64,000 bases of DNA from positions 256,001-320,000 of the forward strand of contig JBHYGA010000004.1 in the NCBI GenBank assembly GCA_051859245.1, given 5' to 3'. The stretch comes from Gemmatimonadaceae bacterium. Lineage in GTDB: Bacteria > Gemmatimonadota > Gemmatimonadetes > Gemmatimonadales > Gemmatimonadaceae. Within the stretch, counting starts at the first letter, position 1, and each line of letters begins with the position of its first letter. Shown here piece after piece: positions 4,889 through 30,049 of this stretch. The notes below the pieces were generated by a model, which was not told the DNA's origin, made no database searches, and was given only the letters and a program-made list of their open reading frames with translations. The position numbers and the translations under genes are program-made.

Positions 4889-5013
4889 TGCGCCGAATCC
4901 TCGGCGGCGACGTCGCCGGGTTGGCGTTCGCCAAGCGCTTCGCAGAGGCGTACGTACCCCAGCATCAGCGCAAAAAACAGCAGGGTGCCCACGATGTAGG
5001 CGAAATCGAGCAC
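4885..5013 (-). CDS. 42-aa single-TM peptide at the kdpF position
   Basis: GTG start after [47 protein letters not shown]; stop overlaps the kdpA start (ATGA). Confidence 0.75.
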   Translation of the reverse strand: MLDFAYIVGTLLFFALMLGYVRLCEALGERQPGDVAAEDSAQ

Positions 5014-5073
5014 GACAGATTCCTCGGTAGAGAATGCGAAAACGGCGTTGCACGAGGATCATGTCGATCCAGT

Positions 5074-5122
5074 CGTGAACGCCGCGCAAAAACCACCAGA
5101 GTCCGCGTAAAGACAACACAAA
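5074..5122 (-). promoter_or_regulatory. Two putative KdpE binding sites upstream of the kdpABC operon
   Basis: Minus strand TTTGTG-N5-TTTACG (5122-5106) and TTTGCG-N5-TTCACG (5090-5074); 11-bp-period direct repeats resembling the E. coli KdpE site TTTATA-N5-TTTACA. Confidence 0.6.
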
Positions 5123-5133
5123 AATTTCCTGCG

Positions 5134-7545: not shown

Positions 7546-7562
7546 TTTGTGAGATCTTTATG
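7546..7562 (+). promoter_or_regulatory. Putative third KdpE-type box in the kdpE / peptidase divergent gap
   Basis: TTTGTG-AGATC-TTTATG, same pattern as the kdpA boxes, followed by TTGACG at 7565-7570. Confidence 0.4.
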
Positions 7563-7609
7563 CGTTGACGCAGACCGCCCCGAACGTTCCTCTCGCCGTA
7601 CCCCCGCCC

Positions 7610-8911: not shown

Positions 8912-8916
8912 GCTGA

Positions 8917-11493
8917 TCACTGATTGCGACGCGCCTCGTCGCGCGTCGCCCGCGCTTCCCACTTTGCCGCTTCAGTGGGTTTCCCCCACGCGGTATAGAG
9001 CTCACGCAAACGGCGCCACACATCCTGCACCGGCTCCACACTGTGAGGCAACTCGGCGGCAAGTTGTTGTTCTGCCGGGATCAGCAACGCCTCCGCCTCG
9101 GCGTATTTGCCAGCAGCCGTCAGCACTTCGGCGAGTGAACTGTTCGTCGACGCCAGCAACCAATGCCCCTTGGGCAAAATTGCCGAGCGCAATCGATGCG
9201 CTTCACGCACCCAGCGCTCACCCACCGTTGCGGAGTCAAGTCGCGCCAGCGCCATACCCAAATGCATCATGCTCGATGCAAGTGCGATGTTCGAATCATC
9301 AAGCGTTTTTCCGCGCAGCGCGACCACGCGACGTGTCCACTGCGTGGATTCCGCGTAGCGACCTCGACGCCGCAAGTGGTCGCCAAGGTTGAGCATCGTC
9401 ATTGCCAGATTCGGGTGCTCCGGTCCGAGTACGCGTTCGCGAATACTGATCACTTCGCGAAACGCTGCTTCTGCGGAATCCATTTGCCCAAGACGCTCCA
9501 GCACGCCTGCGCGTACGGTCAGAATCATGGCCAACGCCGCCTCGTCATCTGGGGCAACGCGCCGCTGCAACTTGAGCGCCGACGCGAGCAGCGTATCGCC
9601 CGCAGTGTGGTCCCCCATGTCGCTGGCGACAACTGCGGCTGAGACAAACGTGGGCACAGCGGCCACCGCGTCGTCTGGAAAGTGCTCGCGGTGCAGCGCC
9701 AGTGATTCGTACAATAGCGGCAGTGCGTCGGCGTTATTGCCGAGACGGTTGAGTGTCTGCGCTCGCGTATCGAGTAGCGTCGAACGCGCCAGCGGGGTCA
9801 CATCGCGCAGTACGCGCTGCATGGAATCCGCAATGCGAAGCACGGAATCAGCCGCGGGGTAGTTGCCCTGCTCCCAGCGCGCGATGCCAATGTCAACAAT
9901 CGTGCTGGCATGGCTCAGCGTTCCGCGAAGATTCGCGCGTTCATTCGCCGCCAGGCTGCGCACATACTGCGTGTCCGCTTCCGTGTATTCGCCCAGCGCA
10001 AGATACGTGTCGCCCATGATCGATCGCAGTTCGGCTTCAAGCGCCGGCGACAACCGCGCATCGTTGAGCCGAAATGCCGCCGAATCCAGCACGTCGCGTA
10101 CCCGCGCATCGGCGCCCAGCACGCCGGGCTTGGCCGCACCGAGCATTTCGGTCAGGAACGCCTGCACTTCGGTCGCGCGTGCCGCTTCGCTGCTCGCACG
10201 TGACGCTTGTCGCATGGCGGCCGCAGTGCCGGCGACCAACGACAGTACCGCGACTGACGCGGCGAGCAGTTCAACACGGCGGCGACGCACAAATTTTCCA
10301 ATGCGATAGCCCGCACTGTCAGGTCGCGCGATAACCGGACGACCCGCCAAGTGACGCGTGATGTCGTCCATGAGCGCGTCCACCGAACCGTACCGTCGAT
10401 CCGGTTCCTTGCGTAGCGCCATGCCGACAATCGCGTCCAGATCACCGGCGAGCGTGCGCTTGGCGCGATCAAGTGATCGTTCACCGAGCAATACACTGTG
10501 CGACACCGCCAACTCGGCGCTCGGCCGCGGCGTTGGTGTTTCCGTGACCACACGTTCCATCGCACTCGCCGAAAGACCAGCGAGTGAGAAAGGCCGGCGC
10601 CCGGTTAACAGTTCGTACAGCAAAACGCCGAGTGCGTACACGTCGGCCGTTGTGGTGACCGGCTCACCGCGCATTTGCTCGGGAGCCGCGTACTCTGGTG
10701 TGAACGCGCGCGCGCCAAGCGCGGTGTGCTGCGATTCACTGCCATCATCGTCCAGCAACTTGGCAATGCCAAAGTCTACGAGTTTCACCGCCCCGTCTTC
10801 GCGCACCAGAATGTTGCTGGGCTTGAGATCACGGTGCACAATCAGGCGGCGATGTGCAGCGCGCACTGCATCACAGACGTCAAGGAACAGACGCAGTCGT
10901 GCGTCGACATCCAGCTTGCGCTCGTCGCACCATGCAGTGATTGGCGAGCCGTCAATGTACTCCATGACGAAGTACGGCTGACCGTCTGGCGTGACGCCAC
11001 CGTCGAGCAACGCCGCAATGCGCGGATGTTGCAGTGAGGCAAGAATCTGTCGCTCGCTGCGGAACCGTCGCGCCGCGTCGTCGCTATCGGTGATGCGACG
11101 GAGAAACTTGACGGCGACACGTTGCTGATACTGATCGTCGGCGCGTACCGCTTCGTGCACCGTGCCCATGCCACCGGCACCAATGCGGCGTCCAATGGCC
11201 CACGGGCCCAAATGCAAACCTTCGCGCTCTGCATCTTTGGAAGCGAACGCGTCTGCATGATCACGTGGTGTAATCGCCTCAAGCGCCAGCGCGCCGAGCG
11301 AGCGGTCACTGTCATGTGCAGCGAGCAACGCGCGCAACTCATGCGCCAGCGCGGGATCGCGCAATGCAGCATCAGAAAGAATGGATTCACGCTTATGCGA
11401 GGGCGCGTGTACCGCCGCATCAAACATTTGTTCGAGTTCCGCAAAACGCGCCGCGGTGCCCGAATCGTCGGGTGGCAACGCGCCGGTGCTCAC
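8917..11493 (-). CDS. Membrane Hanks-type Ser/Thr kinase with C-terminal TPR-like repeats
   Basis: GAGGMG, VAVK, HRDLKPSN, DFGIAK, TPEYAAPE, DVYALG; one TM; LGPEHP-type helical repeats; GTG start overlaps the ECF stop (GTGA). Confidence 0.93.
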   Translation of the reverse strand: MSTGALPPDDSGTAARFAELEQMFDAAVHAPSHKRESILSDAALRDPALAHELRALLAAHDSDRSLGALALEAITPRDHADAFASKDAEREGLHLGPWAIGRRIGAGGMGTVHEAVRADDQYQQRVAVKFLRRITDSDDAARRFRSERQILASLQHPRIAALLDGGVTPDGQPYFVMEYIDGSPITAWCDERKLDVDARLRLFLDVCDAVRAAHRRLIVHRDLKPSNILVREDGAVKLVDFGIAKLLDDDGSESQHTALGARAFTPEYAAPEQMRGEPVTTTADVYALGVLLYELLTGRRPFSLAGLSASAMERVVTETPTPRPSAELAVSHSVLLGERSLDRAKRTLAGDLDAIVGMALRKEPDRRYGSVDALMDDITRHLAGRPVIARPDSAGYRIGKFVRRRRVELLAASVAVLSLVAGTAAAMRQASRASSEAARATEVQAFLTEMLGAAKPGVLGADARVRDVLDSAAFRLNDARLSPALEAELRSIMGDTYLALGEYTEADTQYVRSLAANERANLRGTLSHASTIVDIGIARWEQGNYPAADSVLRIADSMQRVLRDVTPLARSTLLDTRAQTLNRLGNNADALPLLYESLALHREHFPDDAVAAVPTFVSAAVVASDMGDHTAGDTLLASALKLQRRVAPDDEAALAMILTVRAGVLERLGQMDSAEAAFREVISIRERVLGPEHPNLAMTMLNLGDHLRRRGRYAESTQWTRRVVALRGKTLDDSNIALASSMMHLGMALARLDSATVGERWVREAHRLRSAILPKGHWLLASTNSSLAEVLTAAGKYAEAEALLIPAEQQLAAELPHSVEPVQDVWRRLRELYTAWGKPTEAAKWEARATRDEARRNQ

Positions 11494-12080
11494 GCGCCAG
11501 CCGTTGCCATGGACGATGAATCGCCATCCAGTGCACGCAGGAGAAATGCGCGCGCGAACGTCCAATCGCGTTTCACCGTGGCCGGCGACGAAACCATGGC
11601 TTCCGCCGTTTCTTCAATGGAGAGTCCGCCGAAGAACCGCAGTTCGACAACGCGTGCTTGCCGCGGTGCGAGGCGTTCCAGATCGGACAAGGCGTCATCC
11701 AACGCAATCAGATCAATCGACGTTCCTTCTGAGCCCACCAGTGCTTCGTCGAGGGTGACACGCACTCCGTAGTCGCGTTTGACCCGACGTCGCTTGCGCG
11801 CGTGATCCACGAGCAGACGCCGAATGGTTTGCGACGCAATCGCAAAGAAATGTGCGCGATTCTGCCACGACATGCGGTTGACGCCGATGAGCTGCATGAA
11901 CGCTTCGTCCACCAGCTCGGTGGGCTGGAGTGTATGCCCCGCCGTTTCGCGACGCATCGCGAGTTCCGCGATGCGATGCAGTTCGTCGAGCACAAGCTGT
12001 GCCACGCGGTCCGCCGCGCCAGGGGTTCCGCGCTGCAGCTCCGCAAGCGCCGAGGTGATGTCTCCGGTAGGGCCGGTCAT
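11490..12080 (-). CDS. ECF sigma factor of the kinase-associated (TIGR02999-like) type
   Basis: HTLQPTELVDEA, WQNRAHFFAIAS, LVDHAR, VVELRFFGGLS, TVKRDWTFARAFL; start set to ATG 12080. Confidence 0.92.
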   Translation of the reverse strand: MTGPTGDITSALAELQRGTPGAADRVAQLVLDELHRIAELAMRRETAGHTLQPTELVDEAFMQLIGVNRMSWQNRAHFFAIASQTIRRLLVDHARKRRRVKRDYGVRVTLDEALVGSEGTSIDLIALDDALSDLERLAPRQARVVELRFFGGLSIEETAEAMVSSPATVKRDWTFARAFLLRALDGDSSSMATAGA

Positions 12081-12148
12081 AGCCGCTACGCTAGCGCTCG
12101 ACACACACTGCCCGCAAGCAGCATGTGCCGAGCTCTGGCGTAACAGCA

Positions 12149-15100
12149 TTACCGCCGGATCATCGCCCCAACCCGTGGTGCGGCCGGCGGCTGGCCACCG
12201 AACTCGAACGCTCCGATATCACACGCGGCGATGCGCGTGAATCCGCGCTGATCACTCACCGGGCAGCTGGCCGCCACACCAGCGTTGATCGCGGCGCTCC
12301 CTTCAAGCAGCGCGTGCGTGAACGACGGCCCGCCGTTGTTTGCCAGTGTCGTGTTGATCCCGGGCGGCGTGTTGGGTTTGTCAGACGCGACCGTAAAGCG
12401 TGTGCACGTGGCGTCGCTCGACAGATTGCCGCCGCCTGATGTGATCAGACTTGTGCCGCCGCTTCCGCAATCTCCGGGATTGCTGCCAACGAGATTGCCA
12501 GCCAACAAGACGTTGGTGACTGTGAGCGCTCCAGCGTTGTTGGTGCCAATACCGGCTCCGTAGTCAAACGCTTTGTTCGCGACGAACGTGGAGTTCACGA
12601 TAGTGCCGGGACCAGTGGCGGCGATTCCACCACCGGTGAGCGCCTCGTTGGCCGAGAAAGTGCTGTTGCGAACCGTGAGATTTCCGGTGGTGGCGGTGAA
12701 CAGCCCCCCGCCAATCGCGCCGGTCGTATTTCGCGCGAAGGTGCTCTCTTCCACGAGCGTAGGCACACCTGCGGTCATGCCGCCACCGCTCGCTGCGATC
12801 GCCTTGTTTCCGCTCACCGTGACACGTCGCAAGGTAGCGGCGGCGCCCGGCCCAACGAGTTGCACGCCACCGCCCTGCGTGCCGGCTTCGTTGTCGAGTA
12901 CCTGCGTACCCGCCATGCTGAATACCGACTGTCCGGCCTTCCAAACGCCGCCGCCAACCGTGTTGGAGCGATTGCGCCGAATCTGGCCGCCTTCAAGTGT
13001 GACCGTCATCGTTCCGTTGAATCCGTACGCGCCACCGGAGTTCGACACGTTGTCGTCGGCGATCACGTTGCGCAGCGTGTACGTGCCGCCGGTAAGTGCG
13101 AGAATCGCACCTCCGCCCTGCGTGGCGCGGTTCTCCACAAACGTCGAGCTATCAGCGACCAGCGTCACGTTCTCCATATAGGCGCCACCGCCGCCGCCCG
13201 TCGAGGCGAGATTCTCCGCAATGCGCACGCCCTTGAGCTGAACGCTCGGGCCGTTGAGAAAGAGCGCGCCTCCACCCAGAGCCTGATTCCGCTCGATCAC
13301 AACATTGGTCAGTGCGAGCGTTTGCGCGCCGCTCTGGAAAATCGCGCCGCCAAAAGCCGCGGAACGGTTTCCACCGATTGACCCGCCGGTGACGGAAAGT
13401 TCGGCCGTATTGCCGCCCCAGATCGCTCCGCCGGAGCCAGAGGTACCGTTCGCACGATTGTTGTCCACGTTCACGTTGGTGAGCGTTGCCTTGGCCGTCT
13501 GCTGCAAATACAAACCGCCACCACCCGTCAGGTTCGCAATGTTCTCGCGAATGCTCCCGCCCTGCTGCGAATACTCGCCCGTGCCATAGACGAGCGCTCC
13601 ACCGGCACGGTTGGCGGCCGTGTTCGCAATCAGATCCGAATTCACCAACATCGCGCGCGAGCTAGCGATTTCGAGCCCCGCTGCAGACGACGCGCTGTTA
13701 GCGCGGATGGTCGTGCCCGTGATGGTCGCGAGGGCGCCACCGCGAACACTGACAGCACCGGCCGAAACGATCGCGCTGTTACCCTGAATCGTCGCGTTCA
13801 CCAGTGAAAGCGTGGCGGTGGCGCCATCTACGAACATCGCGCCACCAATACCAAGCTGCGGACTCGTTGCGCGATTGTCAGTGACCGAGGTGCTGTCGAG
13901 CACAAGTGAAGCGTTGAAAACGCGAACGCCGCCGCCTACGGAGCCACTCGCGACATTCTCGGCAATACGTCCGCCGAGCAGCGTCACCAACGTACCCTCT
14001 TCCAGCGACAATCCCGCGCCCGCTCCGGACGCGCCATTGGTACGATTGTTGGTGATCTCAACGTTCACAAATGTGCCACGCGCCGCGCGCGCCACGAGTA
14101 CCCCGCCGCCCGGGACGTTATCCGATTGATTGTCTGTCACGCGCACATCACGAAGCGTGACATTGGCTTTGTTGTCAATCATCAATCCGCCGCCACCGAG
14201 CCGTCGTCCACCGCGCATTGTTACGCCGCGCACGGACGCCGAGAACTCACCGTCAATCACGAGCACGCCGCGGCGCGCTGCTTCCGTGCCAGCCGCGTTG
14301 ATGATGAGCGCATCGACGCCCGGTCCGACGAGATCGAGCGCGGCAGTCACGGACGGCAGCGCAGCACCGAGCGTGATTGTGGCTGGCGCTGCACCGCCAA
14401 CAATCACGATGGAGTCGCGATCTGGCGCCGTATTCGACGCAGCGAGCGCCTCTCGCAGCGTGCAATGTTGCAAGGTGCAGCTCCCATCATCGGTATCGTC
14501 GAGGGTTGCAACGCGCCAGACGTTGCGCACCGTAAGGGCACGTTCGCCTTGTTTGGCCGGATCACGTACGCTCGTCGCGCGAACCGTGCAGGTTCCTGGC
14601 GTACTTGGCGCGAGAAACTGTACCGTGGCGCCCGTACCGGTGATCGTGCCACAACTTGTGCTCCACGTGACCGAGAGATTGCTGGTCCCCGCGACCGCGG
14701 CAGTCAACGCGGTCTGTTCACCGCGGAACAGCGCGCTGCTCACCGCCGTCACGGCCACCGTGACCGGTGTGACGGTCACCGTCGCGGCGGCAGTGCGTGT
14801 TGGATCCAGCACACTGGTGGCCGTCACGGTATAACTGCCACCAGCCACCGGAGCAGCCCATCGCACACTGCTGCCGGTGCCAACAATTGTGCCCGCACTC
14901 GCCGTCCACGTCACCGCGTCATTCGTGGCGTTTGTCACCGCCGCCGCGAGCGACACGGTGTCACCCGCGCCTACGGTGCTCGTGGCCGGTGTCACCGCAA
15001 TGCTCACTGGCGTGACCGTCACCGTGGCGAACGCTGTGCGCGCCGCGTCGACCACACTCGTTGCCGTAATCGTGTAGCTGCCACCCGCACCGGGTGCGGT

Positions 15101-15415
15101 CCATGAGGCGCTTGTGCCGTTCGGCGTGATGGTGCCCGCACTCGAGCTCCACGTCACGCCAGTATTGGTCGCGTTCGTAACCGACGCCGTGAACTGCGCC
15201 GTCGCGCCCGCGTTCACGGTCGCGGTGGCAGGCGTGACGGTGACGCTGACCGGAGGCGGCGGTGGCTCCGTCGTGCCCGAGTCGCCGCCACAGGCGAAGA
15301 CACTCGACAGTGTGAGAAACGACAGCAGAACGACTGCACAGGACCGGCGAGACGGGCGCGTTGCGCGCCGTAGTCGCTGACCGGTCCTCAAGTCTGATGG
15401 TGAGAGGCGGGGCAT
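12149..15415 (-). CDS. Large surface lipoprotein: 3 Ig-like repeats, CSLREA-type motif, parallel beta-helix repeats, C-terminal choice-of-anchor-Q-like tail
   Basis: Lipobox VFAC; DDGSCTLQHCTLREAL; many N-x-A...GGG repeats; LANNGGPSFTHALLEGSAAINAG...DQRG...CDIGAFE. Start uncertain (15415 or 15505). Confidence 0.85.
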   Translation of the reverse strand: MPRLSPSDLRTGQRLRRATRPSRRSCAVVLLSFLTLSSVFACGGDSGTTEPPPPPVSVTVTPATATVNAGATAQFTASVTNATNTGVTWSSSAGTITPNGTSASWTAPGAGGSYTITATSVVDAARTAFATVTVTPVSIAVTPATSTVGAGDTVSLAAAVTNATNDAVTWTASAGTIVGTGSSVRWAAPVAGGSYTVTATSVLDPTRTAAATVTVTPVTVAVTAVSSALFRGEQTALTAAVAGTSNLSVTWSTSCGTITGTGATVQFLAPSTPGTCTVRATSVRDPAKQGERALTVRNVWRVATLDDTDDGSCTLQHCTLREALAASNTAPDRDSIVIVGGAAPATITLGAALPSVTAALDLVGPGVDALIINAAGTEAARRGVLVIDGEFSASVRGVTMRGGRRLGGGGLMIDNKANVTLRDVRVTDNQSDNVPGGGVLVARAARGTFVNVEITNNRTNGASGAGAGLSLEEGTLVTLLGGRIAENVASGSVGGGVRVFNASLVLDSTSVTDNRATSPQLGIGGAMFVDGATATLSLVNATIQGNSAIVSAGAVSVRGGALATITGTTIRANSASSAAGLEIASSRAMLVNSDLIANTAANRAGGALVYGTGEYSQQGGSIRENIANLTGGGGLYLQQTAKATLTNVNVDNNRANGTSGSGGAIWGGNTAELSVTGGSIGGNRSAAFGGAIFQSGAQTLALTNVVIERNQALGGGALFLNGPSVQLKGVRIAENLASTGGGGGAYMENVTLVADSSTFVENRATQGGGAILALTGGTYTLRNVIADDNVSNSGGAYGFNGTMTVTLEGGQIRRNRSNTVGGGVWKAGQSVFSMAGTQVLDNEAGTQGGGVQLVGPGAAATLRRVTVSGNKAIAASGGGMTAGVPTLVEESTFARNTTGAIGGGLFTATTGNLTVRNSTFSANEALTGGGIAATGPGTIVNSTFVANKAFDYGAGIGTNNAGALTVTNVLLAGNLVGSNPGDCGSGGTSLITSGGGNLSSDATCTRFTVASDKPNTPPGINTTLANNGGPSFTHALLEGSAAINAGVAASCPVSDQRGFTRIAACDIGAFEFGGQPPAAPRVGAMIRR
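14522..15250 (-). repeat. Three tandem ~81-aa Ig-like coding repeats
   Basis: Unit V-x-V-T-P...VTW...GTI...AP...YTVTATSV-x-D...ATVTV occurs three times, the third more diverged; boundaries approximate. Confidence 0.85.
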
Positions 15416-15501
15416 GGCGAGGAGCTCCATCGCGGAGTGGAAGGACACCCACTGAACGCGGGTGGTGGTCTCACTTACGCGCCGTCCCCGACCAAACTGG
15501 C

Positions 15502-16455
15502 TCACTGCACCGGTGCCAGACCCTCATTGTTGAAGAATCGCACCAGCGTACGGGCCGCCTCTCTCGGACGTTCCCAATGCGGCGAGTGACCCGTTGAGTC
15601 GAACTGCACCAATGGTGCGCGGTACAGCCGCACAAGCTCTGTCTGCTCGGAACGCGGCATGAACGCATCCTTCGCGCCCCACATGACCATGGTACGCACC
15701 GTGCTCCGCACGGGCGGACCTGAATCGGTCATCATGCCCCGCATCAACCCCTTCCACACGTGCAGTGGCAACTTGAGACTCGCCTGGACCGTGGAATCAA
15801 GAAATGCCTGAGGAACCGGTACATGCACGGAACTCTCTTGAAAGCCGCGAGCGAACGCGTCGGACACTGGTGCATTCTCGTCCGTGAACTCTGCCACTGC
15901 GCCCGCGAGTTCGCCCAAACCCGCAACGTATGCACCGCCTCGCAGAGCACCAATCAGCCCGAGCGATTGCACGCGATTAGCCCGCTGCGCGGCAAGATGC
16001 TGTGCGACCGCAGAACCCATCGAATGTCCAACTACGTGCACTCGCGTCAGTTGCAGGGAATCGAACACCGCCGCCACATCGCTGGCCAGCGTGCGCATGC
16101 TGTAGTCACCCACTGGTTTGCTCGACTCACCGTGTCCGCGCATATCGATGGTGATCAATCGAAAGTCGCCCGGGAGGAACTCGACGACACGGTTGAATGA
16201 TGACCACGAATCCGACAATCCGTGCAACATGACCACGGGCGTGCCATTCGGGTTGCCGCGTTCAACCACATGCAGCCCCACATCGGATGACACCTGTATG
16301 TGGCGTGCCCGAATGCCGGTTGCCACTCCGGTATCGGCGGTCGTGTTCGCGAGCGCGATGTTGTCGCCGTTGGGACGGCTTACGGCACCGGCGGTGATGG
16401 CTGCGACGGCGCCAATCGCGGCGACTGAAAGAAGAAGCGTTTTACGTGCCAGCAT
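15502..16455 (-). CDS. Exported alpha/beta hydrolase
   Basis: Signal peptide; LHGLSDS, DMRGHG, GHSMG nucleophile, WGAKD, GHSPHWE. Confidence 0.9.
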   Translation of the reverse strand: MLARKTLLLSVAAIGAVAAITAGAVSRPNGDNIALANTTADTGVATGIRARHIQVSSDVGLHVVERGNPNGTPVVMLHGLSDSWSSFNRVVEFLPGDFRLITIDMRGHGESSKPVGDYSMRTLASDVAAVFDSLQLTRVHVVGHSMGSAVAQHLAAQRANRVQSLGLIGALRGGAYVAGLGELAGAVAEFTDENAPVSDAFARGFQESSVHVPVPQAFLDSTVQASLKLPLHVWKGLMRGMMTDSGPPVRSTVRTMVMWGAKDAFMPRSEQTELVRLYRAPLVQFDSTGHSPHWERPREAARTLVRFFNNEGLAPVQ

Positions 16456-18837: not shown

Positions 18838-19077
18838 TGATCACACTCTCATCAGGGTTAACACTGCAGCGGCACTGGAGCGAGCGGGAAACGGCGAAGG
18901 TCAAGCGTTACGTTTCGTACGCACAAGGAAGGTGACGTGCATCACACGACAATGCGCTTTCGCCGTTGCGCCCGCCATAGGGCAAGTCGCAGTTTGGGAT
19001 GGCGCGGCCAAGATGCCGCCGCTTACGAATGCGCGTGAACGCCGCGCGTTCGGCTCCCCCAGACAGGACGTACTTCC

Positions 19078-19482
19078 ATGGGACTGTTCAGCAAGATTCT
19101 CTCGAAGCTTGGCATCGGCGACGACAAAACGACCGCGCCCGCCGCCGCAGCGCCCGCCGCCGCAGCGCCTGCCGCTGCCCCCGTGCCAGGACGCACGACA
19201 CCAGATCCGTCCGTCGCGATTCGGGTCGTCAATGTTGAAGAGAAGCTCGAAGCAATGGCCAAGGCCAATCCACAGGAGCTCAACTGGCGCACATCCATCG
19301 TGGACCTGCTCAAGCTGCTCGATCTCGATAGCAGCTTTGCGGCACGCAAGGAGTTGGCGGTTGAACTCGATTGCCCGGATGAACTCATGAAAGATTCCGC
19401 GAGCATGAATATCTGGTTGCACAAGCAGGTGCTGTCGAAAATCGCGGCCAATGGTGGCTACATCCCGCACGATCTGTACTGA
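19078..19482 (+). CDS. DUF3597-like protein
   Basis: MGLFSKIL, (APAAA)n linker, LNWRTSIVDLLKLLDLDSS..ARKELA, DSASMNIWLHKQV..K.AANGG. Confidence 0.88.
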   Translation: MGLFSKILSKLGIGDDKTTAPAAAAPAAAAPAAAPVPGRTTPDPSVAIRVVNVEEKLEAMAKANPQELNWRTSIVDLLKLLDLDSSFAARKELAVELDCPDELMKDSASMNIWLHKQVLSKIAANGGYIPHDLY

Positions 19483-19491
19483 ACGATTGCA

Positions 19492-19535
19492 AAGCGCTCG
19501 CCGGTGGCCGCGTACACGGTCATCAGCGAGCGCTT
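19492..19535. terminator. Hairpin between convergent genes
   Basis: AAGCGCTCGCCGGTGGCCG-CGTACA-CGGTCATCAGCGAGCGCTT, with G-U wobbles and one mismatch. Confidence 0.65.
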
Positions 19536-20991
19536 ACGCAAACGCCTTCTTGATGCGGTTGATCGTCATCGGTTGCTCAAAGTAGTTGCAGTGCCACACA
19601 CCGCTTTTGTCACCAAAGCGGTATGTGCGCCCATCAGCAATCGCACCACGCACAGGTCCAAGATCGGTCATGCTCGCGGTGTCCACGACCAGATCATTCG
19701 CTTCGGGAAAAATGCGATCTGCTGCCGTGTCGGCCGCAGTTGATTTGCGAAAGTATTTCCAGAACGCGAGACCGGGATCATCTGTCTCGTAGTTGGTGAG
19801 CACCGCATTGTACTCGGCACGCACCACGCCCGCGTGATCACGCAGTCGCGACAGCTCAGCGTTATTCGACACCATGGACTGTCCCTGCAATCCCGGAATC
19901 AGCGCAACAGCTGCATCGATTGATCCGCGTTTGCCAAGATTGTCAATCGGCGGAATCGAAAACTTCTCTTTAGCGCGCCCACCCAGGAACTCGAGCATCG
20001 CAAATCCGGCTGTTGCGAACGGATGCGCTTTGGCCGCTACACCCAGGGTCTTCGACAACAAGCCACCAATGTTCGTGAGCAGACTCACCAGCGGCTGAAT
20101 CTTGTCTGGCGCCGCGAGACTGGTGCCGGCCAGCGGTGTGCCCGCCAGAAACACGCGCACCGTTGCACCCGACTCGGCGAGCGCGTGACCCAGCACTTCC
20201 AGCCACCAGCTCACCACCACTCCGCCGCGACTGTGCGCAATCACATCGAGTTGTCCGCTCGTGGCGCCCATTGTGCGCGCCAGGTCGAGCGCATTCACCC
20301 ACGGGCTGACCGACAACGTGTGGTGTTCAAAACACACGACCTGGTCATAGTCGCCGTTAATGGCCGCCGACAACCACTGTTTGCCGGTTGACGCGGTACC
20401 CAAACCGGAAATAATGCTGGTGGCGTGCGAGAACGTGCCGTGGACAATCAGCAGCGTTTTGCCTGTGAACGGACCGCGCACGGCGGGTCCCGCTGCAAAC
20501 GTTCCATCCGCGTGTTGCACCACCCTGCGCAATCCCATCTTGCTATCGGGGTTCAAACGCTCGTCGACCTGCGCCAACCGTTCCATGTATTGGTTGGGCT
20601 CAAGCCGAGGCATGCGCACACGCGCGAGTTCTTCATTCCACGGACGTGGTGTGATCGTGATACGATTGCGACGACTTGCCCGTGCACGTCGCGTTACGGC
20701 GCTCGGTGAACGCACAGCTGCCACGTCATCGGCCGAACGCCAGAGCAACACACCGTCGGCATTTTCAACCAACACATACTCGGCGTGGTACGCATCGCGC
20801 TGAGCGGACAACGAGGCACGACGTCGCCGCACCAGCTGCGGGGATGGCTCGCCGTCAAACGGATCATCGGCGGCGCGCAGGTTCGATGTGGCCACATCGT
20901 GCTGGTCCGCTTCGGCAAGCACGGTGTGCAGCGTATCGAGCACACCCGCGTGCCGCACCGAGGCCGGACGATCATCGTGCGTGGTGGCCAT
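19534..20991 (-). CDS. Lipase/esterase-like alpha/beta hydrolase with uncharacterised N-terminal domain (paralog 2)
   Basis: LLIVHGTFS, AHSRGG (Ser codon 20230-20232), GTPLAGT, NDLVVD, VWHCNYF; no signal peptide. Confidence 0.8.
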   Translation of the reverse strand: MATTHDDRPASVRHAGVLDTLHTVLAEADQHDVATSNLRAADDPFDGEPSPQLVRRRRASLSAQRDAYHAEYVLVENADGVLLWRSADDVAAVRSPSAVTRRARASRRNRITITPRPWNEELARVRMPRLEPNQYMERLAQVDERLNPDSKMGLRRVVQHADGTFAAGPAVRGPFTGKTLLIVHGTFSHATSIISGLGTASTGKQWLSAAINGDYDQVVCFEHHTLSVSPWVNALDLARTMGATSGQLDVIAHSRGGVVVSWWLEVLGHALAESGATVRVFLAGTPLAGTSLAAPDKIQPLVSLLTNIGGLLSKTLGVAAKAHPFATAGFAMLEFLGGRAKEKFSIPPIDNLGKRGSIDAAVALIPGLQGQSMVSNNAELSRLRDHAGVVRAEYNAVLTNYETDDPGLAFWKYFRKSTAADTAADRIFPEANDLVVDTASMTDLGPVRGAIADGRTYRFGDKSGVWHCNYFEQPMTINRIKKAFA

Positions 20992-20993
20992 GG

Positions 20994-23567
20994 TCAGCGC
21001 TCACCCGCAATAATCGGCAGCGGGGTGACAGGCGGCGACGACCGGCGCGCCACGCGAATGTCGAGCAGCGAATCGAATGCGTTGCGGTCGGCCAGATTGT
21101 CGAGCCCTTCCTGTTGCGCCTGCGCAAAGGGATAACCAAAACACAGTCCGGTTGACTCGAGCAGGCACAGCGCGTCGGCGCGAACATACCCCTGCAACTC
21201 ATCGTAGCCCTGCGGCCCCACGCGCCATCCGTACGGATCCACCAGTTCAATGCGACCAGAACGAAACGCCGACTCACCAAGTGATCGTACGCGACCTTCA
21301 GGTGGACGGGCCACTGTCATGAACTCCTCCTGGTACGCGTCAGCGCGCCAGTAGCCGACAAAACAGTGTCCGGTGATCAGTACGAGACACGCGTGGATCT
21401 CTACATATTCAAGACACGCGGCAAGCAGCAGCGACAAGTCAATACAAGTGCCGCTCGACGTGTGCAACAACTCACTTGGCGTGCGCAACCGCTGTCCACC
21501 GCGCGAATACGCCGGTGGTGGATTGATGTACAGCAGCTTGCGATCGTTCACCAGCGCGGTCCAGATCGCCTGCACCTGCAAATCAGTCCGATCGGTCGCG
21601 TGCGCACCGCCGTCGGGATCGTCGACCTGCTGATAGCCGTCAAAACCGGCGTTCGTATCATCAGTCAGCGCCACCAGATATTTGCGTGCTTCGCCAATAA
21701 TGCGTGCGATCGCCGGATCGCGCGGCAGCACGAATGACGGCAACCACGGATTGTTCTTGGAATCGTCGTACCATTCGTCTACCGGTAGCAGCGCTACGCG
21801 ATGCGTGTCTTCATGAGCCACTCGGCCTTCCCACGTCACGCGGGTGTACACCGTGGTGTGCGTGCGCTCATGCAATGAACGCAGCAGCGGTGCGGTCAGC
21901 GGAAGCGTGACCGCATCGGCGAGCGCCACGTGCGGTTCACTCAGGCTCAGTGTTCTGCGGAACTGCTGTACCACGCCACCGGCCTCAAGCTCCACTTCCA
22001 CGCGCACATCATCGAGATCGTGATCAACTAGTTTGCTCAGCGTAAACGTCTTGAGCGCACTGCGCCGGTTGTGCAGCAGTGAATAGTTGATCTCGGACGG
22101 CACATCGACATCAACCGCGAGTACCTCTGACACGCGCTGCTCGCGCGAACGTTGGAGCTCGGCCTTCAATGCGGCCTGATCCGCATCATCGTCAGTGCTG
22201 AATGTGACCGCAGGATCGTCCGCGCGTGCAGCGATGGCCTTGTTGATTTCTTCAACCGGCTCGCACGTGCACATCCACAGCACAATGCCGGTGCCGTGCA
22301 GGTCGTGCCCTTGCTCATCCAACTGTACCCACGCGCGTCCAAACGCTTCCGCGAGCGCGGTGAGCGTGGTCGCATCCTGGCACTCGCGATAGAACACGGT
22401 GAAGAAGTACTCAGCGACTTCGTCGGGAATCGTATCGAGAAAGCCAATGCTGACCTGCGCACCACGACGCAACATTTCCGGTGCCGTGTGTGCGCCGGAG
22501 TAGTGCAGGTTCAGCGTCACCAGCGCGGGTGGCGTTTTGCCAGTGGGAATCAATGCCTCGGCCAGGTCGACCGCGCTCACTACTTGTTCACGTGCGGTCT
22601 GCTGGAATACGCCGTCGGCGGTCATCCCTGGTTCAGCGCGTCGCACTTCTCGCGCCATGAGCATGCCACCGGGCTGTACGCGCGCCGGATCGGCATAGAG
22701 ATCGGGAATCAACGCGGCCGCCTGAATCGGATCCACACCGCTCACATGCACGAAGTGCGAATCGTTGGCCGGCAACGCGTTCATGTACGCGGCCAGCGCC
22801 GAGTGGGTCGAACGCGGTGGTGCGGTGTGGTGCGTTCGGTCAGAAGGCGGAAACACCATGTTGCTGGTGTCATTTGCGCCTACGGCGTGGCCGAGCCGCA
22901 GAATTTCGGAATCAAAGCTGTACACATCGCCAATGCGCCCGGGAGCAGACGTGACAATGGTCAATGTGCCCGCGCCCACTTCATCAGGGTGCGGTGGACG
23001 TCCGTCTGCGAGACACCGGGTAATCAGAACGCCCTGCGTGCGCCCGAGACAGCGTGTCGCCGCGCTCAATACGTATTCCCACGGAAACGCAAACGCGGCT
23101 TCGACCACATCGCGGGCGTGGTCCGCATCATGAAACGCATGACCTGCAATGCTGGAGTCGGCTAGCACCACTTGCAGTCGCTCCGAGGTGGCGAGTTGCC
23201 GCATAACGTCGGCGTCGAAACCGAGCAGCGACAGGGCTTCAACCGCGTACTCGCTGATCACCGCGCGCAGATCGGGATCGTGCGCCCAACGACTGCGCAT
23301 GCGCAGTGTGTAGCTCCAGTCCGCGCTCAAGCGAAGGATCTGGTGCGAGGCTTCGGGTGAACAATCGAATGACGCATGCGCGCCACGCAGTTGAACGAGC
23401 GGCGGCGGCTCGTGAAACTGAGCGGTTGTCGCACGTGCGTCTGTTCGCGACGTTCTCGAACCCGCCGCGCGCGACGTTGATTTGCGCGCGGCTTTTTTCG
23501 ACGCGGATTTTTTTGCGACTTGTTTTGAAGGCGCGCGCTTGCTCGGGGCTTTTTTGCTCGGGCTCAT
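20994..23567 (-). CDS. Multidomain protein: Lys/Ala-rich tail, degenerate CHAT/caspase-like domain, beta-rich linker, transglutaminase-like domain
   Basis: CHAT-like: FPWEY, HFVHVSG, LVTLNLHYSG, GAQVSIGFLDTIPDEVAEYFFTVFYRE. C-terminal: QVQAIWTAL, YINPPPAY, GQRLRTPSELL, GTCIDLSLLLAACLE, GHCFVGYW, LLEST. Confidence 0.7.
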   Translation of the reverse strand: MSPSKKAPSKRAPSKQVAKKSASKKAARKSTSRAAGSRTSRTDARATTAQFHEPPPLVQLRGAHASFDCSPEASHQILRLSADWSYTLRMRSRWAHDPDLRAVISEYAVEALSLLGFDADVMRQLATSERLQVVLADSSIAGHAFHDADHARDVVEAAFAFPWEYVLSAATRCLGRTQGVLITRCLADGRPPHPDEVGAGTLTIVTSAPGRIGDVYSFDSEILRLGHAVGANDTSNMVFPPSDRTHHTAPPRSTHSALAAYMNALPANDSHFVHVSGVDPIQAAALIPDLYADPARVQPGGMLMAREVRRAEPGMTADGVFQQTAREQVVSAVDLAEALIPTGKTPPALVTLNLHYSGAHTAPEMLRRGAQVSIGFLDTIPDEVAEYFFTVFYRECQDATTLTALAEAFGRAWVQLDEQGHDLHGTGIVLWMCTCEPVEEINKAIAARADDPAVTFSTDDDADQAALKAELQRSREQRVSEVLAVDVDVPSEINYSLLHNRRSALKTFTLSKLVDHDLDDVRVEVELEAGGVVQQFRRTLSLSEPHVALADAVTLPLTAPLLRSLHERTHTTVYTRVTWEGRVAHEDTHRVALLPVDEWYDDSKNNPWLPSFVLPRDPAIARIIGEARKYLVALTDDTNAGFDGYQQVDDPDGGAHATDRTDLQVQAIWTALVNDRKLLYINPPPAYSRGGQRLRTPSELLHTSSGTCIDLSLLLAACLEYVEIHACLVLITGHCFVGYWRADAYQEEFMTVARPPEGRVRSLGESAFRSGRIELVDPYGWRVGPQGYDELQGYVRADALCLLESTGLCFGYPFAQAQQEGLDNLADRNAFDSLLDIRVARRSSPPVTPLPIIAGER

Positions 23568-23613
23568 AGTGCGTCGGTGCGAGGACGTGTCACAGGAGTT
23601 GGCGGGCGATTCA

Positions 23614-25419
23614 TCAGGCGGGAATGTTCAGCAACGCGCCGCCACTGCGGTCTGCCGATTGTCGGCGGCGGCTGAGAATGGCTCGACGCCCCCGTCTTAC
23701 CGACGCAAGCGCTGACAGCGCTGGTGCGACCTCCGACTCGCCGTCAATCAGCCAGTGGCGCAGCTGCGCAATGATGTCAGGGTCGCGAAAGCACGTGGTG
23801 TGCATCGTGCGTCCGTTCTGTGGCAGCGCGAGCGTACGCTGCACATCAATCGGCAGGCCTGCCACCGTCGCCATCGAGCTCGTGTTCACCACTAAATCGT
23901 TCGCCTGACGCATCTGTGCGTCCATGGCCAGATCCCACAGCTTGAGCTTGAGCGCCGACGGCATCGCTTCGCTCGCGTCTTCTGCGCCGGCGCCATTGGG
24001 TTCATAGTCGTTGCTGACGGCGTGATATGTTTGCACGCGCGTTGCTGGCGGTGGTGACGTGTTTAGATCCTTCACGACCTGCTGCTGCGGATCCATCGCG
24101 GCGAGTCCAGGCACCGCTTCGCTGTCGAGCAGTGCGGTGGCAAGAAACCGAACAAGCGCGGCCACTCCGCGCGCAACCGTTTCAACCCACACGGCCGCAA
24201 CCGCCGCTGGTGGCAATGCCGTCGCAACGCCACGACACGCCGCCACCGCGAGATTTGTCATCACCGTGACCAGTGTATTCCACTGCGCGCGTTGTGCGAG
24301 CAGTGTGCCTGCGAGTGTAGACGCCACAAAAACCACACGTGCGAATGCGTCGGACCAACGTGTGCCCGGCACGAGCTGCTCGAGCAGCGTTCGTGTCACG
24401 AGGCCACCGCGACTGAACGCGATCACATCGATCACCGGACGGGTTGTGCCCGGCGGAAATGCGCGATCAAGCGCGTCCAGAATGGCTTGCGCGTTCTGCG
24501 CTGGTGTTTCGCTGAGTGTGCGGTGATTCCAGCCGAGAATGTGGTCGTACTGTTCGTGCATGGCGTGCAGCAGGGCCACGCCGGGCACGGTGAACCCGAG
24601 TCCGCCAAAGGAACCCACGGTTGAACTGAAGGTGCCGTGCACCAGCAGTAGCACACGCGGCGCGGCGCCGGGGAGCGTGGTTACTGGTGGCAGCGTAAAG
24701 CGCTCACCGAGAGTGGTCCATTCGGAGGGCACGGTAGACGCCACGCGCACAAGTCCGGCAGACACGCCTTTTTCGAGATGCTTGATCAACAGCCCGGTCA
24801 CCTTGCGGCGAATGAACTTGAAGAGCCATCCCCCAACGGCGCGCAGCACACTCGAGACGCGCCGGCGACGTGTGGTGTGCGTACTGCGCGTGGCAGGTGT
24901 CTGTGCCGCCGTGATGTTGAAGTGCGCGATGCGAGTAGCGGTGCGCGCGGCTGTTGACGCGCGTGGGCCATTCTCGCGTTGGCGTGTCGCGCGCTTGCGA
25001 GCCGCGCGACGTTGGTCCGTTGGTGCGTTACTCACGCGCGTGCCATCGGCGAACACCCAGTCGAGTTCACCGAACTCGTCGACGGTGAGGACAACTGCGT
25101 CTTCATCATCGGCGAGTTCAACGTCGACGGTGGTGGCTTGCATCGCGCCTGGCAGCACCGACGCACGTCGCGCACTCATGCCCGGACGACGCGGCCGAGG
25201 TGCGACCGTAAAGTTGGTCACGAGCTCAAAGCCCTGTCCTTCAAGTTCACGCAACAGGCGCGTGAGATCTTCTTCGGGCGGCGCGGCGCGGATCGTGCCG
25301 CGCGCCCGACGTTTGCGCGCGTCACCGCGCGGCGTGTTGCGCAACTGCGTGCCTGGCAACACGGCCACAGTCGCAGCGTGGTGCACGGTGACTCCGTTGC
25401 CCATCGAATGGCTCGGCAT
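23614..25419 (-). CDS. Lipase/esterase-like alpha/beta hydrolase with Arg-rich N-terminal region (paralog 1)
   Basis: LLLVHGTFSST, AFSRGG (Ser codon 24412-24414), ASTLAGT, VPGLAAM, NDLVVN, MHTTCF. Confidence 0.8.
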   Translation of the reverse strand: MPSHSMGNGVTVHHAATVAVLPGTQLRNTPRGDARKRRARGTIRAAPPEEDLTRLLRELEGQGFELVTNFTVAPRPRRPGMSARRASVLPGAMQATTVDVELADDEDAVVLTVDEFGELDWVFADGTRVSNAPTDQRRAARKRATRQRENGPRASTAARTATRIAHFNITAAQTPATRSTHTTRRRRVSSVLRAVGGWLFKFIRRKVTGLLIKHLEKGVSAGLVRVASTVPSEWTTLGERFTLPPVTTLPGAAPRVLLLVHGTFSSTVGSFGGLGFTVPGVALLHAMHEQYDHILGWNHRTLSETPAQNAQAILDALDRAFPPGTTRPVIDVIAFSRGGLVTRTLLEQLVPGTRWSDAFARVVFVASTLAGTLLAQRAQWNTLVTVMTNLAVAACRGVATALPPAAVAAVWVETVARGVAALVRFLATALLDSEAVPGLAAMDPQQQVVKDLNTSPPPATRVQTYHAVSNDYEPNGAGAEDASEAMPSALKLKLWDLAMDAQMRQANDLVVNTSSMATVAGLPIDVQRTLALPQNGRTMHTTCFRDPDIIAQLRHWLIDGESEVAPALSALASVRRGRRAILSRRRQSADRSGGALLNIPA

Positions 25420-28382: not shown

Positions 28383-29693
28383 CTACATCACGAACAAGTC
28401 CGATCGATGCGCCGTCGCAATACGCACCGAATCCGCCTCGTCAACACCGGCCTCCGCCGCATACCCGCTCCACGCCGCGACCGCCGCCGACACCTCGGCC
28501 AACACGCGCATCGCTTTCGTCTTTTTTATTCCGGCCGCAGCAGCGAACGAGACGAGGTCCTCAGCTGTGAATCCATCCCGCTTCCCGCCCAGCGTCATCT
28601 GATGCACGCTCGTCCACGCACCCGACGGATTCCACGAGTACGACACATCAAACGCCGGCGACAATCGCCACACACCGGTACGATCCATGAGAAACGCAAT
28701 GTTCTTGACATGATCGTCCTGGTTACGCGCGAGAATATTGAAGTACGTGCGACGCACCTGTTGCTCGAAATCGGGCATTGGTAGTAGCAGTTTGCGCATT
28801 GTCTGCAACACCTGCTCGTACGCATACGCTCCAGCCAGACCAAAGTCATAGTGCGCAAGCGCACCAAACGACTGCATGTGCAGCGTGCCACCGTTCGGCG
28901 TGCGATCAAATCGGCGCGTCATGAAGTGCGAACGTCCGCCTTCTTCATGCAATCGACACGGCTCCATGTGAATGCCGGCCGCGAGCGCCATGCGATGATA
29001 CGCGTACTCAATCCGACCAAAACCCTGCGGGTCCGCAAGTTCTTTGTCACGGTTGCCAGACACGCCGTCGAACTTGAGCAACCAGTGACTGAATCCTTCC
29101 CCCGCAGGCGCCTGGCCCGAGCGAAACTCACCGGTCGTTTCATTCCACGCCAACACGGCCTTCGCTCGCGCGCCACCCGCCGACGTGCCAACTCTCAGTA
29201 TGTCTTCAATCGCGTGTTGATCGTTGTCGCCGGAAAGTTTTCCGTGCAACGCGATGCGATCATCAAGCGCTCGGTCGGCCATCGCAACAAGCTCCGCGAT
29301 ATCAACGCGACGTGAAGCGGTTGGCGATTCTCGAACACGCGGTTTGAATTCCAGCGCGCCCATGCCGCGCGAACCCGTGTAGCACAATCGCTCCACCGGC
29401 GTGAAGCTCGCCGGATCGCGCCCGCGTTGCGCCAACCACGCGTTGATAAGTGTATTGCCGAACGTATCTGGCAAACTGTCGGCCAGCAGTCCTGGCAAAC
29501 CCTTGAACGTCGCGCGCGAAAGCGACGGAAACGAATACGGCACGTCAGTGAGCGGCATCATGAGCGGCGCCACTTGAATCGACGAACGCGCAAACTCGGG
29601 GGTGTATTGAAACACGGCGACTTCGCGATCTGGCAGCCACGTGACCGCGCCAATGTCGCGCCCCCAGAGGATCACACGCGCCGAGTCCGTCAC
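28383..29693 (-). CDS. hipA: HipA-family kinase toxin
   Basis: DSLPD.FG in the N-domain, GTSAGGARAKA, WLLKFDG, RFDR, NQDDHVKN, LSPAFDV; GTGA overlap with the upstream HTH gene. Confidence 0.93.
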   Translation of the reverse strand: MTDSARVILWGRDIGAVTWLPDREVAVFQYTPEFARSSIQVAPLMMPLTDVPYSFPSLSRATFKGLPGLLADSLPDTFGNTLINAWLAQRGRDPASFTPVERLCYTGSRGMGALEFKPRVRESPTASRRVDIAELVAMADRALDDRIALHGKLSGDNDQHAIEDILRVGTSAGGARAKAVLAWNETTGEFRSGQAPAGEGFSHWLLKFDGVSGNRDKELADPQGFGRIEYAYHRMALAAGIHMEPCRLHEEGGRSHFMTRRFDRTPNGGTLHMQSFGALAHYDFGLAGAYAYEQVLQTMRKLLLPMPDFEQQVRRTYFNILARNQDDHVKNIAFLMDRTGVWRLSPAFDVSYSWNPSGAWTSVHQMTLGGKRDGFTAEDLVSFAAAAGIKKTKAMRVLAEVSAAVAAWSGYAAEAGVDEADSVRIATAHRSDLFVM

Positions 29694-30049
29694 TCGGTGC
29701 CCTCGTCACCCCACGTCCACGCCGTGCGCGCCGACGAACGCTGGCCGCTGGCGCGCTGACGTTCAACGCCGTCATACCGCACGCGCTCCACAGGACGGAC
29801 AGACGGGTCCGGCAGCAGTGCGGCGAGGTGATCGGAGAGACCGAGCGCTTGCACGACACGCACGAACGAATCAAGTGAGATCGGCCGGCCATCGGCCAGT
29901 CGCGTGAGCGTGCTGCGCGAGACGCCGGCCCGCTCAGCCAGCTGCTCCTGACTGAGATTTTGGCTCAGCCGGATCTCGTTGAGCTGCCGGCCGAGCATAT
30001 CAATGATCGTTTGCGCCGACGCTAAACTAAAGTCCGGCTTGTGAGTCAT
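29690..30049 (-). CDS. XRE-family HTH protein, probable HipB-type antitoxin
   Basis: IRLSQNLSQEQLAERAGVSRSTLTRL; C-terminal RQRAS...WTWGDE; coupled to hipA. Confidence 0.88.
   Translation of the reverse strand: MTHKPDFSLASAQTIIDMLGRQLNEIRLSQNLSQEQLAERAGVSRSTLTRLADGRPISLDSFVRVVQALGLSDHLAALLPDPSVRPVERVRYDGVERQRASGQRSSARTAWTWGDEGTE

Follow-up and report, generated by a model that had tools for sequence, protein, structure and literature searches.

A conserved gene pair coding for a pseudo-CHAT/transglutaminase-like protein and a lipase-like hydrolase, seen in a Gemmatimonadaceae genome, as a candidate conflict module

A 64,000-nucleotide stretch of a Gemmatimonadaceae bacterium genome (GenBank assembly GCA_051859245.1, contig JBHYGA010000004.1, positions 256,001 to 320,000; this whole stretch is referred to as the window in the rest of the text) carries three consecutive genes coding for two hydrolases, P0001 and P0003, and for the 857-amino-acid (aa) protein P0002 between them. 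The original prediction, made from the sequence alone, took the three for one conflict or defence operon in which the central protein holds or activates two membrane-damaging lipases. Which of these genes belong together, what do they code for, and is a role in conflict the best explanation for them? As predicted, they lie head to tail on the same strand, separated by gaps of 46 bp and then 2 bp and closed by a hairpin, an arrangement confirmed by the open reading frame (ORF) coordinates and by RNA folding:

23614-25419, minus strand: P0001, ORF of 601 aa, accessory DUF7379 alpha/beta hydrolase, upstream
23568-23613, minus strand: spacer between P0001 and the middle gene, 46 bp, from ORF coordinates
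20994-23567, minus strand: P0002, the middle gene, ORF of 857 aa
19534-20991, minus strand: P0003, ORF of 485 aa, canonical partner hydrolase
19488-19540, minus strand: RNA hairpin covering the P0003 stop codon and the sequence just 3' of it, with a visible inverted repeat

A first protein search with P0002 returned 41 relatives, almost all of them unnamed. In a collection of 185,579 species sampled at one genome per species, 251 relatives of the middle gene were confirmed, and we fetched 80 of these loci, to which all locus counts below refer; hydrolases were called with a profile built from the loci themselves. According to a hand count of the record titles, the 80 loci come from Gemmatimonadota (11), Acidobacteriota (19), Planctomycetota (7), Verrucomicrobiota (2), Alphaproteobacteria (14, mostly Bradyrhizobium) and Beta- or Gammaproteobacteria (27). 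Together these loci represent five phyla. In 71 of the 80, the middle gene is immediately followed, on its own strand, by a gene for a DUF7379 hydrolase. This downstream hydrolase is of the P0003 type in 70 of the 80 and of the P0001 type in L060, and the stop codon of the middle gene overlaps the hydrolase start by 4 nt in 24 of the 71. Hydrolases flanking the middle gene on both sides were found only in this window. The P0001 type stands beside a middle-gene relative only in the window, in L060 (downstream) and in L001, the closest relative (71% identity), which has a P0001-type hydrolase upstream and no other. The conserved unit is the middle gene plus a P0003-type hydrolase gene, not the trio; of the conservation proposed for the three genes, the hydrolase following the middle gene held up and the two-sided arrangement did not. 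Eight of the 80 loci have no adjacent hydrolase, and three of these (L019, L036 and L077) stop at a contig edge. Pairwise distances between middle proteins correlate with those between hydrolases across 35 loci (r = 0.89, inflated by shared ancestry; 0 of 2000 permutations as high). As far as comparison of the sequences can tell, this shows the middle protein and the hydrolase to be co-inherited.

In 10 of the 80 loci (L011, L013-L018 and L023-L025, from Bradyrhizobium and two uncultured Alphaproteobacteria), two ORFs take the place of the single middle gene: one of ~390-495 aa for the pseudo-CHAT part described below and one of ~370-420 aa for the immunoglobulin (Ig)-like and transglutaminase-like part, the stop of one often overlapping the start of the other. 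Standalone forms of ~375 aa (P0272-P0346 are among the split and standalone proteins) are abundant in soil data, with 400 short matches, and some of them lie on chromosome-sized contigs. One single metagenomic protein, P0010, has a P0001-type hydrolase fused in frame to a middle-gene relative. Apparent N-terminal fusions in L027, L043 and L045 (ORFs of ~1190-1990 aa) contained no extra Pfam domain and were set aside as probable over-extensions in GC-rich DNA. Next to two of the loci we also observed genes of a different kind. In L070, which lacks the hydrolase, the product of the next gene (12525-14057, plus strand; 511 aa) weakly matches M36 metallopeptidases (E = 0.002) and may be an alternative effector, and in L054 a patatin-like phospholipase gene (7562-9643, plus strand) lies just upstream of the pair.

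The structure model of P0002 (predicted local distance difference test, pLDDT, 86.1; predicted template modelling score, pTM, 0.86) has four parts:

23424-23567, minus strand: aa 1-48, basic disordered tail (pLDDT < 50)
22218-23402, minus strand: aa ~56-450, pseudo-CHAT, a caspase-like CHAT fold without the catalytic dyad (Foldseek, profile)
21768-22121, minus strand: aa ~483-600, Ig-like beta-sandwich, all-beta in the model and carrying the NYSLLHN motif
20997-21767, minus strand: aa ~601-857, transglutaminase-like domain with Cys708, His734 and Glu804

The first 50 residues include 9 Lys, 6 Arg, 10 Ser, 11 Ala and 5 Thr, and a similar basic tail is present in many homologues. Beyond it, the structure model, Foldseek and a profile match to 8tl0 agree with the CHAT-like half and the Cys-His half that had been proposed for P0002. 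Foldseek matched the CHAT part to the SAVED-CHAT filament 8tl0 (E = 4e-5), to Csx29 (8eey), to gingipains and to MALT1; the profile of the middle-protein family found 8tl0 at E = 1e-5, and the look-alikes of P0002 in the protein atlas are CHAT clusters. The Pfam CHAT model (PF12770) gave 15.3 bits, below its cut-off of 24 (E = 0.014), over residues 360-408 only. At the column of the catalytic His, within the GHG motif of 8tl0, the family has Phe, Val, Ile or Leu and His in 0 of 79 sequences, and at the column of the catalytic Cys, within the NAC motif, it has Tyr, Trp or His and Cys in 3 of 79. By these columns the CHAT domain of P0002 is predicted to be catalytically dead, its His and Cys both lost, and the label 'pseudo-CHAT' of the original prediction fits. 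The Ig-like part resembles Ig-like domains such as those of the Kir channel C-terminal domain and RhoGDI. The matches of the last part are a fish transglutaminase (1g0d) and human transglutaminases TG2 (9bc4) and TG3 (8rmy/8rmx), at E = 6e-4 to 3e-3 and with TM-scores that are low because the query is multidomain; Pfam DUF553 matched weakly (12.7 bits for a cut-off of 20.5). All 79 of the 79 sequences in the middle-protein alignment (A2) have Cys708 (codon 21444-21446 in P0002), His734, Glu804 and Asp710.

Two system catalogues were searched, PADLOC-DB 2.0.0 and NCBIfam 20.0. PADLOC returned 0 families for P0001, P0002 and P0003 at E ≤ 1, and no NCBIfam model reached its cut-off for the trio, in agreement with the earlier statement that no named system has this architecture; the only NCBIfam match was a partial one, to ProA. 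Residues 494-748 of P0002 align to positions 1-244 of the 1903 positions of the equivalog model antiphage_ProA (NF058533) at E = 3.8e-53, and the full-length score of 180.4 bits is far below the curated cut-off of 1500. According to the Prometheus passages of PMC13700489, which credit the system to van den Berg et al. (2024, Cell Host Microbe 32:1427), ProA of Pseudomonas aeruginosa constitutes Prometheus, an experimentally validated single-protein anti-phage defence of the helicase-nuclease kind.

The match extends beyond a single model. A search with residues 485-857 of P0002 among long proteins gave 69 matches, all of 1.6-2.3 thousand aa and all with DUF4011 and superfamily 1 (SF1) helicase domains; nearly all of these proteins also have the REase-like and DUF3320 domains. 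Two of them, P0044 and P0045, pass the ProA cut-off with 1981 and 1923 bits and have DUF4011, SF1 helicase, REase-like and DUF3320 domains altogether; their region homologous to P0002 spans residues 1 to ~330, before DUF4011 (375-545), and has no Pfam model. In the 69 ProA-like N-termini the triad columns hold Cys in 69, His in 68, and Glu in 62 with Asp in 5, and several further columns are conserved both there and in the middle-protein family. Judged by these alignments, the Ig-like plus transglutaminase-like half of P0002 (aa ~480-857) is homologous to the N-terminal module of ProA. A Pfam scan of P0002 found no DUF4011, SF1 helicase (AAA_11/AAA_12), REase-like or DUF3320 domain; on its predicted domain content P0002 is not a ProA, with which it has this single module in common. 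As a side observation, we met no mention of the Cys-His-Glu/Asp triad of the ProA N-terminal module in the passages that PMC13700489 devotes to Prometheus.

Both outer proteins match Pfam DUF7379 (PF24096; cut-off 33 bits), P0001 at E = 3.1e-55 (187.5 bits) and P0003 at E = 3.5e-27 (96 bits). They align to each other with 28% identity (E = 5e-22) and share every motif that had been listed for them, namely HGTFS, AFSRGG or AHSRGG, LAGT.LA, PGL, NDLVV.T.SM and a late His; the description of the two as diverged paralogues is upheld. H184, G185, S254, D433 and H467 (P0003 numbering) are invariant in 46 of 46 hydrolases, P0001 and P0003 included (alignment A3). These residues make up the HG oxyanion motif and the triad, whose nucleophilic Ser sits within A-[HF]-S-R-G-G and whose Asp sits within N-D-L-V-V, the late His being the third member; both triads look as intact as predicted. 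The nucleophile of P0003 is Ser254 (codon 20230-20232). In P0001, the hydrolase core starts at about residue 255, after an Arg-rich N-terminal region of ~250 aa, and the nucleophile is Ser336 (codon 24412-24414). The codon positions given beforehand for the two Ser (20230 and 24412) and for the Cys of P0002 (21444) are correct. The best structural matches found in a fold search with the AlphaFold model of P0003 (pLDDT 80.4, pTM 0.85) are true bacterial lipases: LipA of Pseudomonas aeruginosa (1ex9), a Proteus lipase (4hs9), the Geobacillus T1/L1 lipases and 2w22, along with the foldase-requiring lipases 2es4 and 9g8u. A profile search of the PDB sequences with the hydrolase gave the putative lipase 7x2p (E = 1.6e-5) and lipase B entries (E ~0.01), and in the protein atlas P0003 falls among 'esterase/lipase' clusters of DUF7379 that have DUF676 and PGAP1 as minor co-annotations. 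On the strength of the model and the alignments, P0001 and P0003 are lipase-like Ser-Asp-His hydrolases, and their lipolytic or esterase activity is putative, from fold similarity. A Kyte-Doolittle scan, used in place of a dedicated signal-peptide predictor, found no signal-like hydrophobic segment at the N-terminus of any of the three trio proteins, as had been claimed for the two hydrolases.

The P0003-type hydrolases have a domain of their own ahead of the core:

20476-20991, minus strand: P0003 N-terminal domain, aa 1-172, family-specific, with two Arg-rich loops

This domain spans ~130-190 aa in the family and has a conserved LV..DGVL.W hairpin; its two Arg-rich stretches (about aa 53-60 and 101-110 of P0003) are low-confidence loops in the P0003 model. 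Among 1.84 billion proteins, its profile found 312 representatives (E ≤ 1e-3), and DUF7379 follows directly in 87 of the 89 listed matches of at least 300 aa, which makes the domain private to this hydrolase family and no shared adaptor of other effector types.

Clustering of all flanking ORFs from the 80 loci gave no third conserved gene; the biggest of the remaining clusters consisted of antisense ORF artefacts or of a HExxH protein found at 12 loci. Flanking genes vary between loci and lineages, as expected for an inserted cassette. These variable flanks and the spread across phyla point to an accessory, transferable cassette.

What could such a cassette do? We give about an even chance to the pair being a conflict or anti-phage module of the abortive-infection type, with a lipase-like effector under the control of the middle protein. 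This proposal draws on the enzyme module common to P0002 and the validated anti-phage protein ProA, on a dead protease domain able to serve as a scaffold, on the private, Arg-rich and flexible N-terminal region of the hydrolase, and on the way the parts are swapped, doubled, split or fused (in the window, L001, L060, Bradyrhizobium and P0010), such modularity being typical of conflict systems. The homology of the transglutaminase-like half to ProA favours a defence role.

The core would then be a self-contained two-gene cassette moving between genomes. Its first gene would provide the four-part middle protein as a cytoplasmic regulator or sensor, running from the basic tail through the pseudo-CHAT domain and the Ig-like sandwich to the transglutaminase-like domain with its Cys-His-Glu, and its second gene, usually translationally coupled, would provide the serine hydrolase, lipase-like and headed by the family's private N-terminal domain; the window carries one additional diverged hydrolase paralogue upstream of the core pair. 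The hydrolase would act as the effector, with membrane lipids or another ester substrate as its target, and the middle protein would hold it inactive until triggered. Control could be exerted by the dead caspase-like domain, which may bind the Arg-rich N-terminal loops of the hydrolase as a pseudo-substrate, or by the transglutaminase-like cysteine enzyme, which may cleave or modify that Arg-rich region. We infer the physical interaction, the direction of control, the substrate, the toxicity and the phage phenotype of this scheme, as we do the defence or conflict role and the membrane damage by lipases that the original prediction proposed. A complex prediction for P0002 (aa 49-857) with P0003 (aa 1-180) scored 0.00 in both runs, with an uncertain fold of the partner, and speaks neither for nor against binding. 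In its most explicit form, the proposal describes a two-component anti-phage system whose Ig plus transglutaminase-like module senses infection or is triggered by it and, via the dead-caspase scaffold, would free the lipase-like effector from its Arg-rich prodomain, killing the infected cell by membrane damage; this we put forward only tentatively and consider rather doubtful.

Several observations weigh against a defence role or against parts of the scheme. Five assessable loci (L026, L033, L045, L053 and L070) have the middle gene without an adjacent hydrolase, and the third conserved acidic residue of the transglutaminase-like triad in P0002 is Glu804, where Asp is usual. The proximity to defence islands raised by the original prediction was not found, either in the window or around the relatives whose loci were scanned. 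A Pfam scan of 81 immediate neighbours (76 from 37 of the 80 loci, 3 beside hydrolase-less loci and the window's own 2) revealed mostly housekeeping proteins, that is metabolic enzymes, transporters, glycosidases, peptidases and regulators, with no Cas or cyclase family among the flanking genes scanned. The window flanks code for an outer-membrane beta-barrel protein, a coenzyme A (CoA) transferase, an S9 peptidase and other hydrolases, and their PADLOC matches are only a generic Ser/Thr kinase domain and a helix-turn-helix (HTH) protein. Any PADLOC match at E ≤ 1e-5 was obtained for 17 of 128 neighbours from 32 loci, a raw count with no genomic background, and these 17 match mostly through partial or generic domains (ABC ATPase, HTH, radical SAM). 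Searches of 72,556 plasmids and 50,697 phage records turned up no full-length relative of the middle gene and so gave no direct sign of carriage by mobile elements; 79 plasmid records and 1 phage record match the C-terminal module only, the annotated plasmid matches among those listed being DUF3320/DUF4011 (ProA-like) proteins and the phage record being unannotated.

The same housekeeping neighbours and missing defence island suit a physiological pair, in which a cytoplasmic esterase, lipase or protein deacylase active in lipid or protein turnover would be accompanied by a dedicated regulator, scaffold or activator, following a logic comparable to that of operons for a lipase and its specific foldase. 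Such a pair would agree with the weak secondary Pfam matches of the hydrolase family (PGAP1-like, palmitoyl-thioesterase and DUF676 deacylase-type) and with the foldase-needing lipases 2es4 and 9g8u among the fold matches. However, foldase-dependent lipases are secreted, whereas the trio proteins have no signal-like N-termini. The spread is also sparse and patchy, with 251 relatives in 185,579 species, the flanks differ from lineage to lineage, and the Bradyrhizobium copies (42-53% identity to P0002) are about as similar to P0002 as those of Acidobacteriota (41-45%); together with the swapping and addition of effectors and the splitting of genes, this is more what one would expect of accessory, transferable genes than of a core pathway, and we judge a physiological pair unlikely.

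A patchy distribution would equally suit an addiction module resembling a toxin-antitoxin system, with the hydrolase as a toxin neutralised by the middle protein and the pair kept by self-stabilisation instead of by sensing an invader. The tight coupling of the two genes, with the 4-nt overlap in 24 of 71 loci, and the lack of a third gene are as this explanation would have them. Nevertheless, a putative antitoxin of ~800 aa with an invariant enzyme triad common to ProA would be unusual, no full-length relatives were found on plasmids, and an addiction module appears decidedly improbable. Among antibacterial toxins, lipase-like effectors whose nucleophile is of the GxSxG type are common, and the lipase-like fold of P0003 could be that of an interbacterial or exported toxin for which the middle protein serves as adaptor, chaperone or immunity protein. 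Yet none of the three trio proteins has a signal-like N-terminus, no secretion-system Pfam family was recognised among the 81 neighbours, and no neighbour is conserved; we regard an exported toxin as very improbable indeed.

A conflict or anti-phage module controlled by the middle protein would differ from each of the known systems that it resembles. ProA has the Ig-like plus transglutaminase-like module and the Cys-His-Glu/Asp triad in common with the middle-protein family, but carries the module at its N-terminus, before DUF4011, whereas in P0002 it is C-terminal and fused to a pseudo-CHAT domain, with the hydrolase coded by a separate gene. SAVED-CHAT (8tl0) and Csx29 of Craspase (8eey) have the caspase-like CHAT fold of the N-terminal half of P0002, which unlike them lacks the catalytic His-Cys and a SAVED or tetratricopeptide repeat (TPR) sensor. 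CapV is the phospholipase effector of an abortive-infection system, the cyclic-oligonucleotide-based antiphage signalling system (CBASS). The logic proposed here is alike in that an effector that degrades lipids would stay inactive until it is signalled to act, but the hydrolases are DUF7379 alpha/beta proteins and not patatin-like, and there is neither a nucleotide cyclase nor a PADLOC match. The family I lipases with their operon foldases (1ex9, 2es4, 9g8u) provide the best fold matches of the P0003 core and likewise have an adjacent partner gene. Family I lipases are secreted enzymes served by a small, helical foldase anchored in the membrane, whereas P0003 shows no signal-like N-terminus and has as its partner an unrelated multidomain protein of 857 aa.

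The closest parallel in domain classes comes from the nucleoside triphosphatase (NTPase)-centred conflict systems of Kaur et al. (2021, eLife, PMC8195603), whose effector lists, in the sections drawn on here, include an alpha/beta hydrolase directed at membrane lipids, a transglutaminase-like BTLCP peptidase and a caspase. As those sections describe them, these systems centre on STAND or other NTPases and use adaptor domains in common; by comparison, our pair has no NTPase domain and the N-terminal domain of its hydrolase was found on no other effector type. A full-text literature search on DUF7379/PF24096 and on CHAT with transglutaminase yielded no description of the pair, which may be an undescribed defence system. 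It would not be categorically new, because all the domain classes involved are known from conflict systems, going by the same sections of PMC8195603. Of the overall interpretation first offered, the domain calls, the co-occurrence and the lack of a named match stood, while the trio as the unit and the defence island did not.

Some further features of the loci deserve mention. Folded over 19480-19540 of the minus strand, the hairpin after P0003 reaches -34 kcal/mol (z = -3.96; 0 of 200 shuffles equally stable); it has no clear U-tract and is absent from the output of the terminator scan, and promoter and terminator consensus scans added nothing useful. The trio locus has no anomaly in GC content or base composition, and the 64-kb window has no tRNA gene. 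At 12 of the 80 loci (L007, where it occupies 12331-13161 on the minus strand, L009, L011-L015, L017, L018, L020, L021 and L024; alignment A4), the hydrolase gene and a gene for the HExxH protein (~210 aa) are arranged tail to tail. This metallopeptidase-like protein has an invariant HELAHAL and no Pfam match; it is found in Bradyrhizobium and related Alphaproteobacteria and in two Acidobacteriota metagenome-assembled genomes, and in that subclade it may act as an accessory component. No gene of this kind is present in the window.

On the downstream side of the trio, the window has a putative 189-aa ORF (18901-19470, minus strand) with a Gly/Arg-rich stretch and no Pfam or PADLOC match. Its 69%-identical counterpart in L001 (12506-13027) directly follows the middle gene there, so that synteny between the window and L001 is interrupted only by P0003 and two other genes. 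Also conserved downstream of the cassette is a protein of ~1100 aa with Ig-like and right-handed beta-helix domains (window 12149-15505, minus strand; L001 13216-16476). Farther along, 8917-12149 (minus strand) code for an extracytoplasmic function (ECF) sigma factor (PF07638) and, after it, for a TPR-containing Ser/Thr kinase of 882 aa, whose kinase domain matches many PADLOC PD-T4-6 models and looks like a generic kinase, not a defence call. A Kdp potassium-uptake cluster (1068-7505, minus strand) comprises KdpA, a P-type ATPase, a DUF4118 histidine kinase and a response regulator. About 3 kb from the trio on its other side, a HipA-like kinase gene (28383-30049, minus strand; HipA_C and Couple_hipA) preceded by one for a small HTH protein makes up a HipBA-type toxin-antitoxin pair.

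If the pair is a defence system, it would represent a new architecture, one in which a pseudo-protease serves as scaffold beside a transglutaminase-like enzyme, a lipase is the effector, and neither an NTPase nor nucleotide signalling takes part. Should its shared module indeed be the trigger, the N-terminus of ProA would be a reusable trigger wired either to a nuclease-helicase or to a lipase. The pair would then also offer a handle on Prometheus, which the passages of PMC13700489 dealing with it characterise by domains only, since a module lacking a Pfam model could be approached in a much smaller two-gene setting. Nature has supplied variants that may serve as tools for dissecting the cassette: the split middle gene of Bradyrhizobium, the swapped or doubled hydrolases of Gemmatimonadaceae and one fused form. 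Even if its role is not in defence, the pair is a conserved, unannotated enzyme pair of soil Acidobacteriota, Gemmatimonadota, Bradyrhizobium and Burkholderiales.

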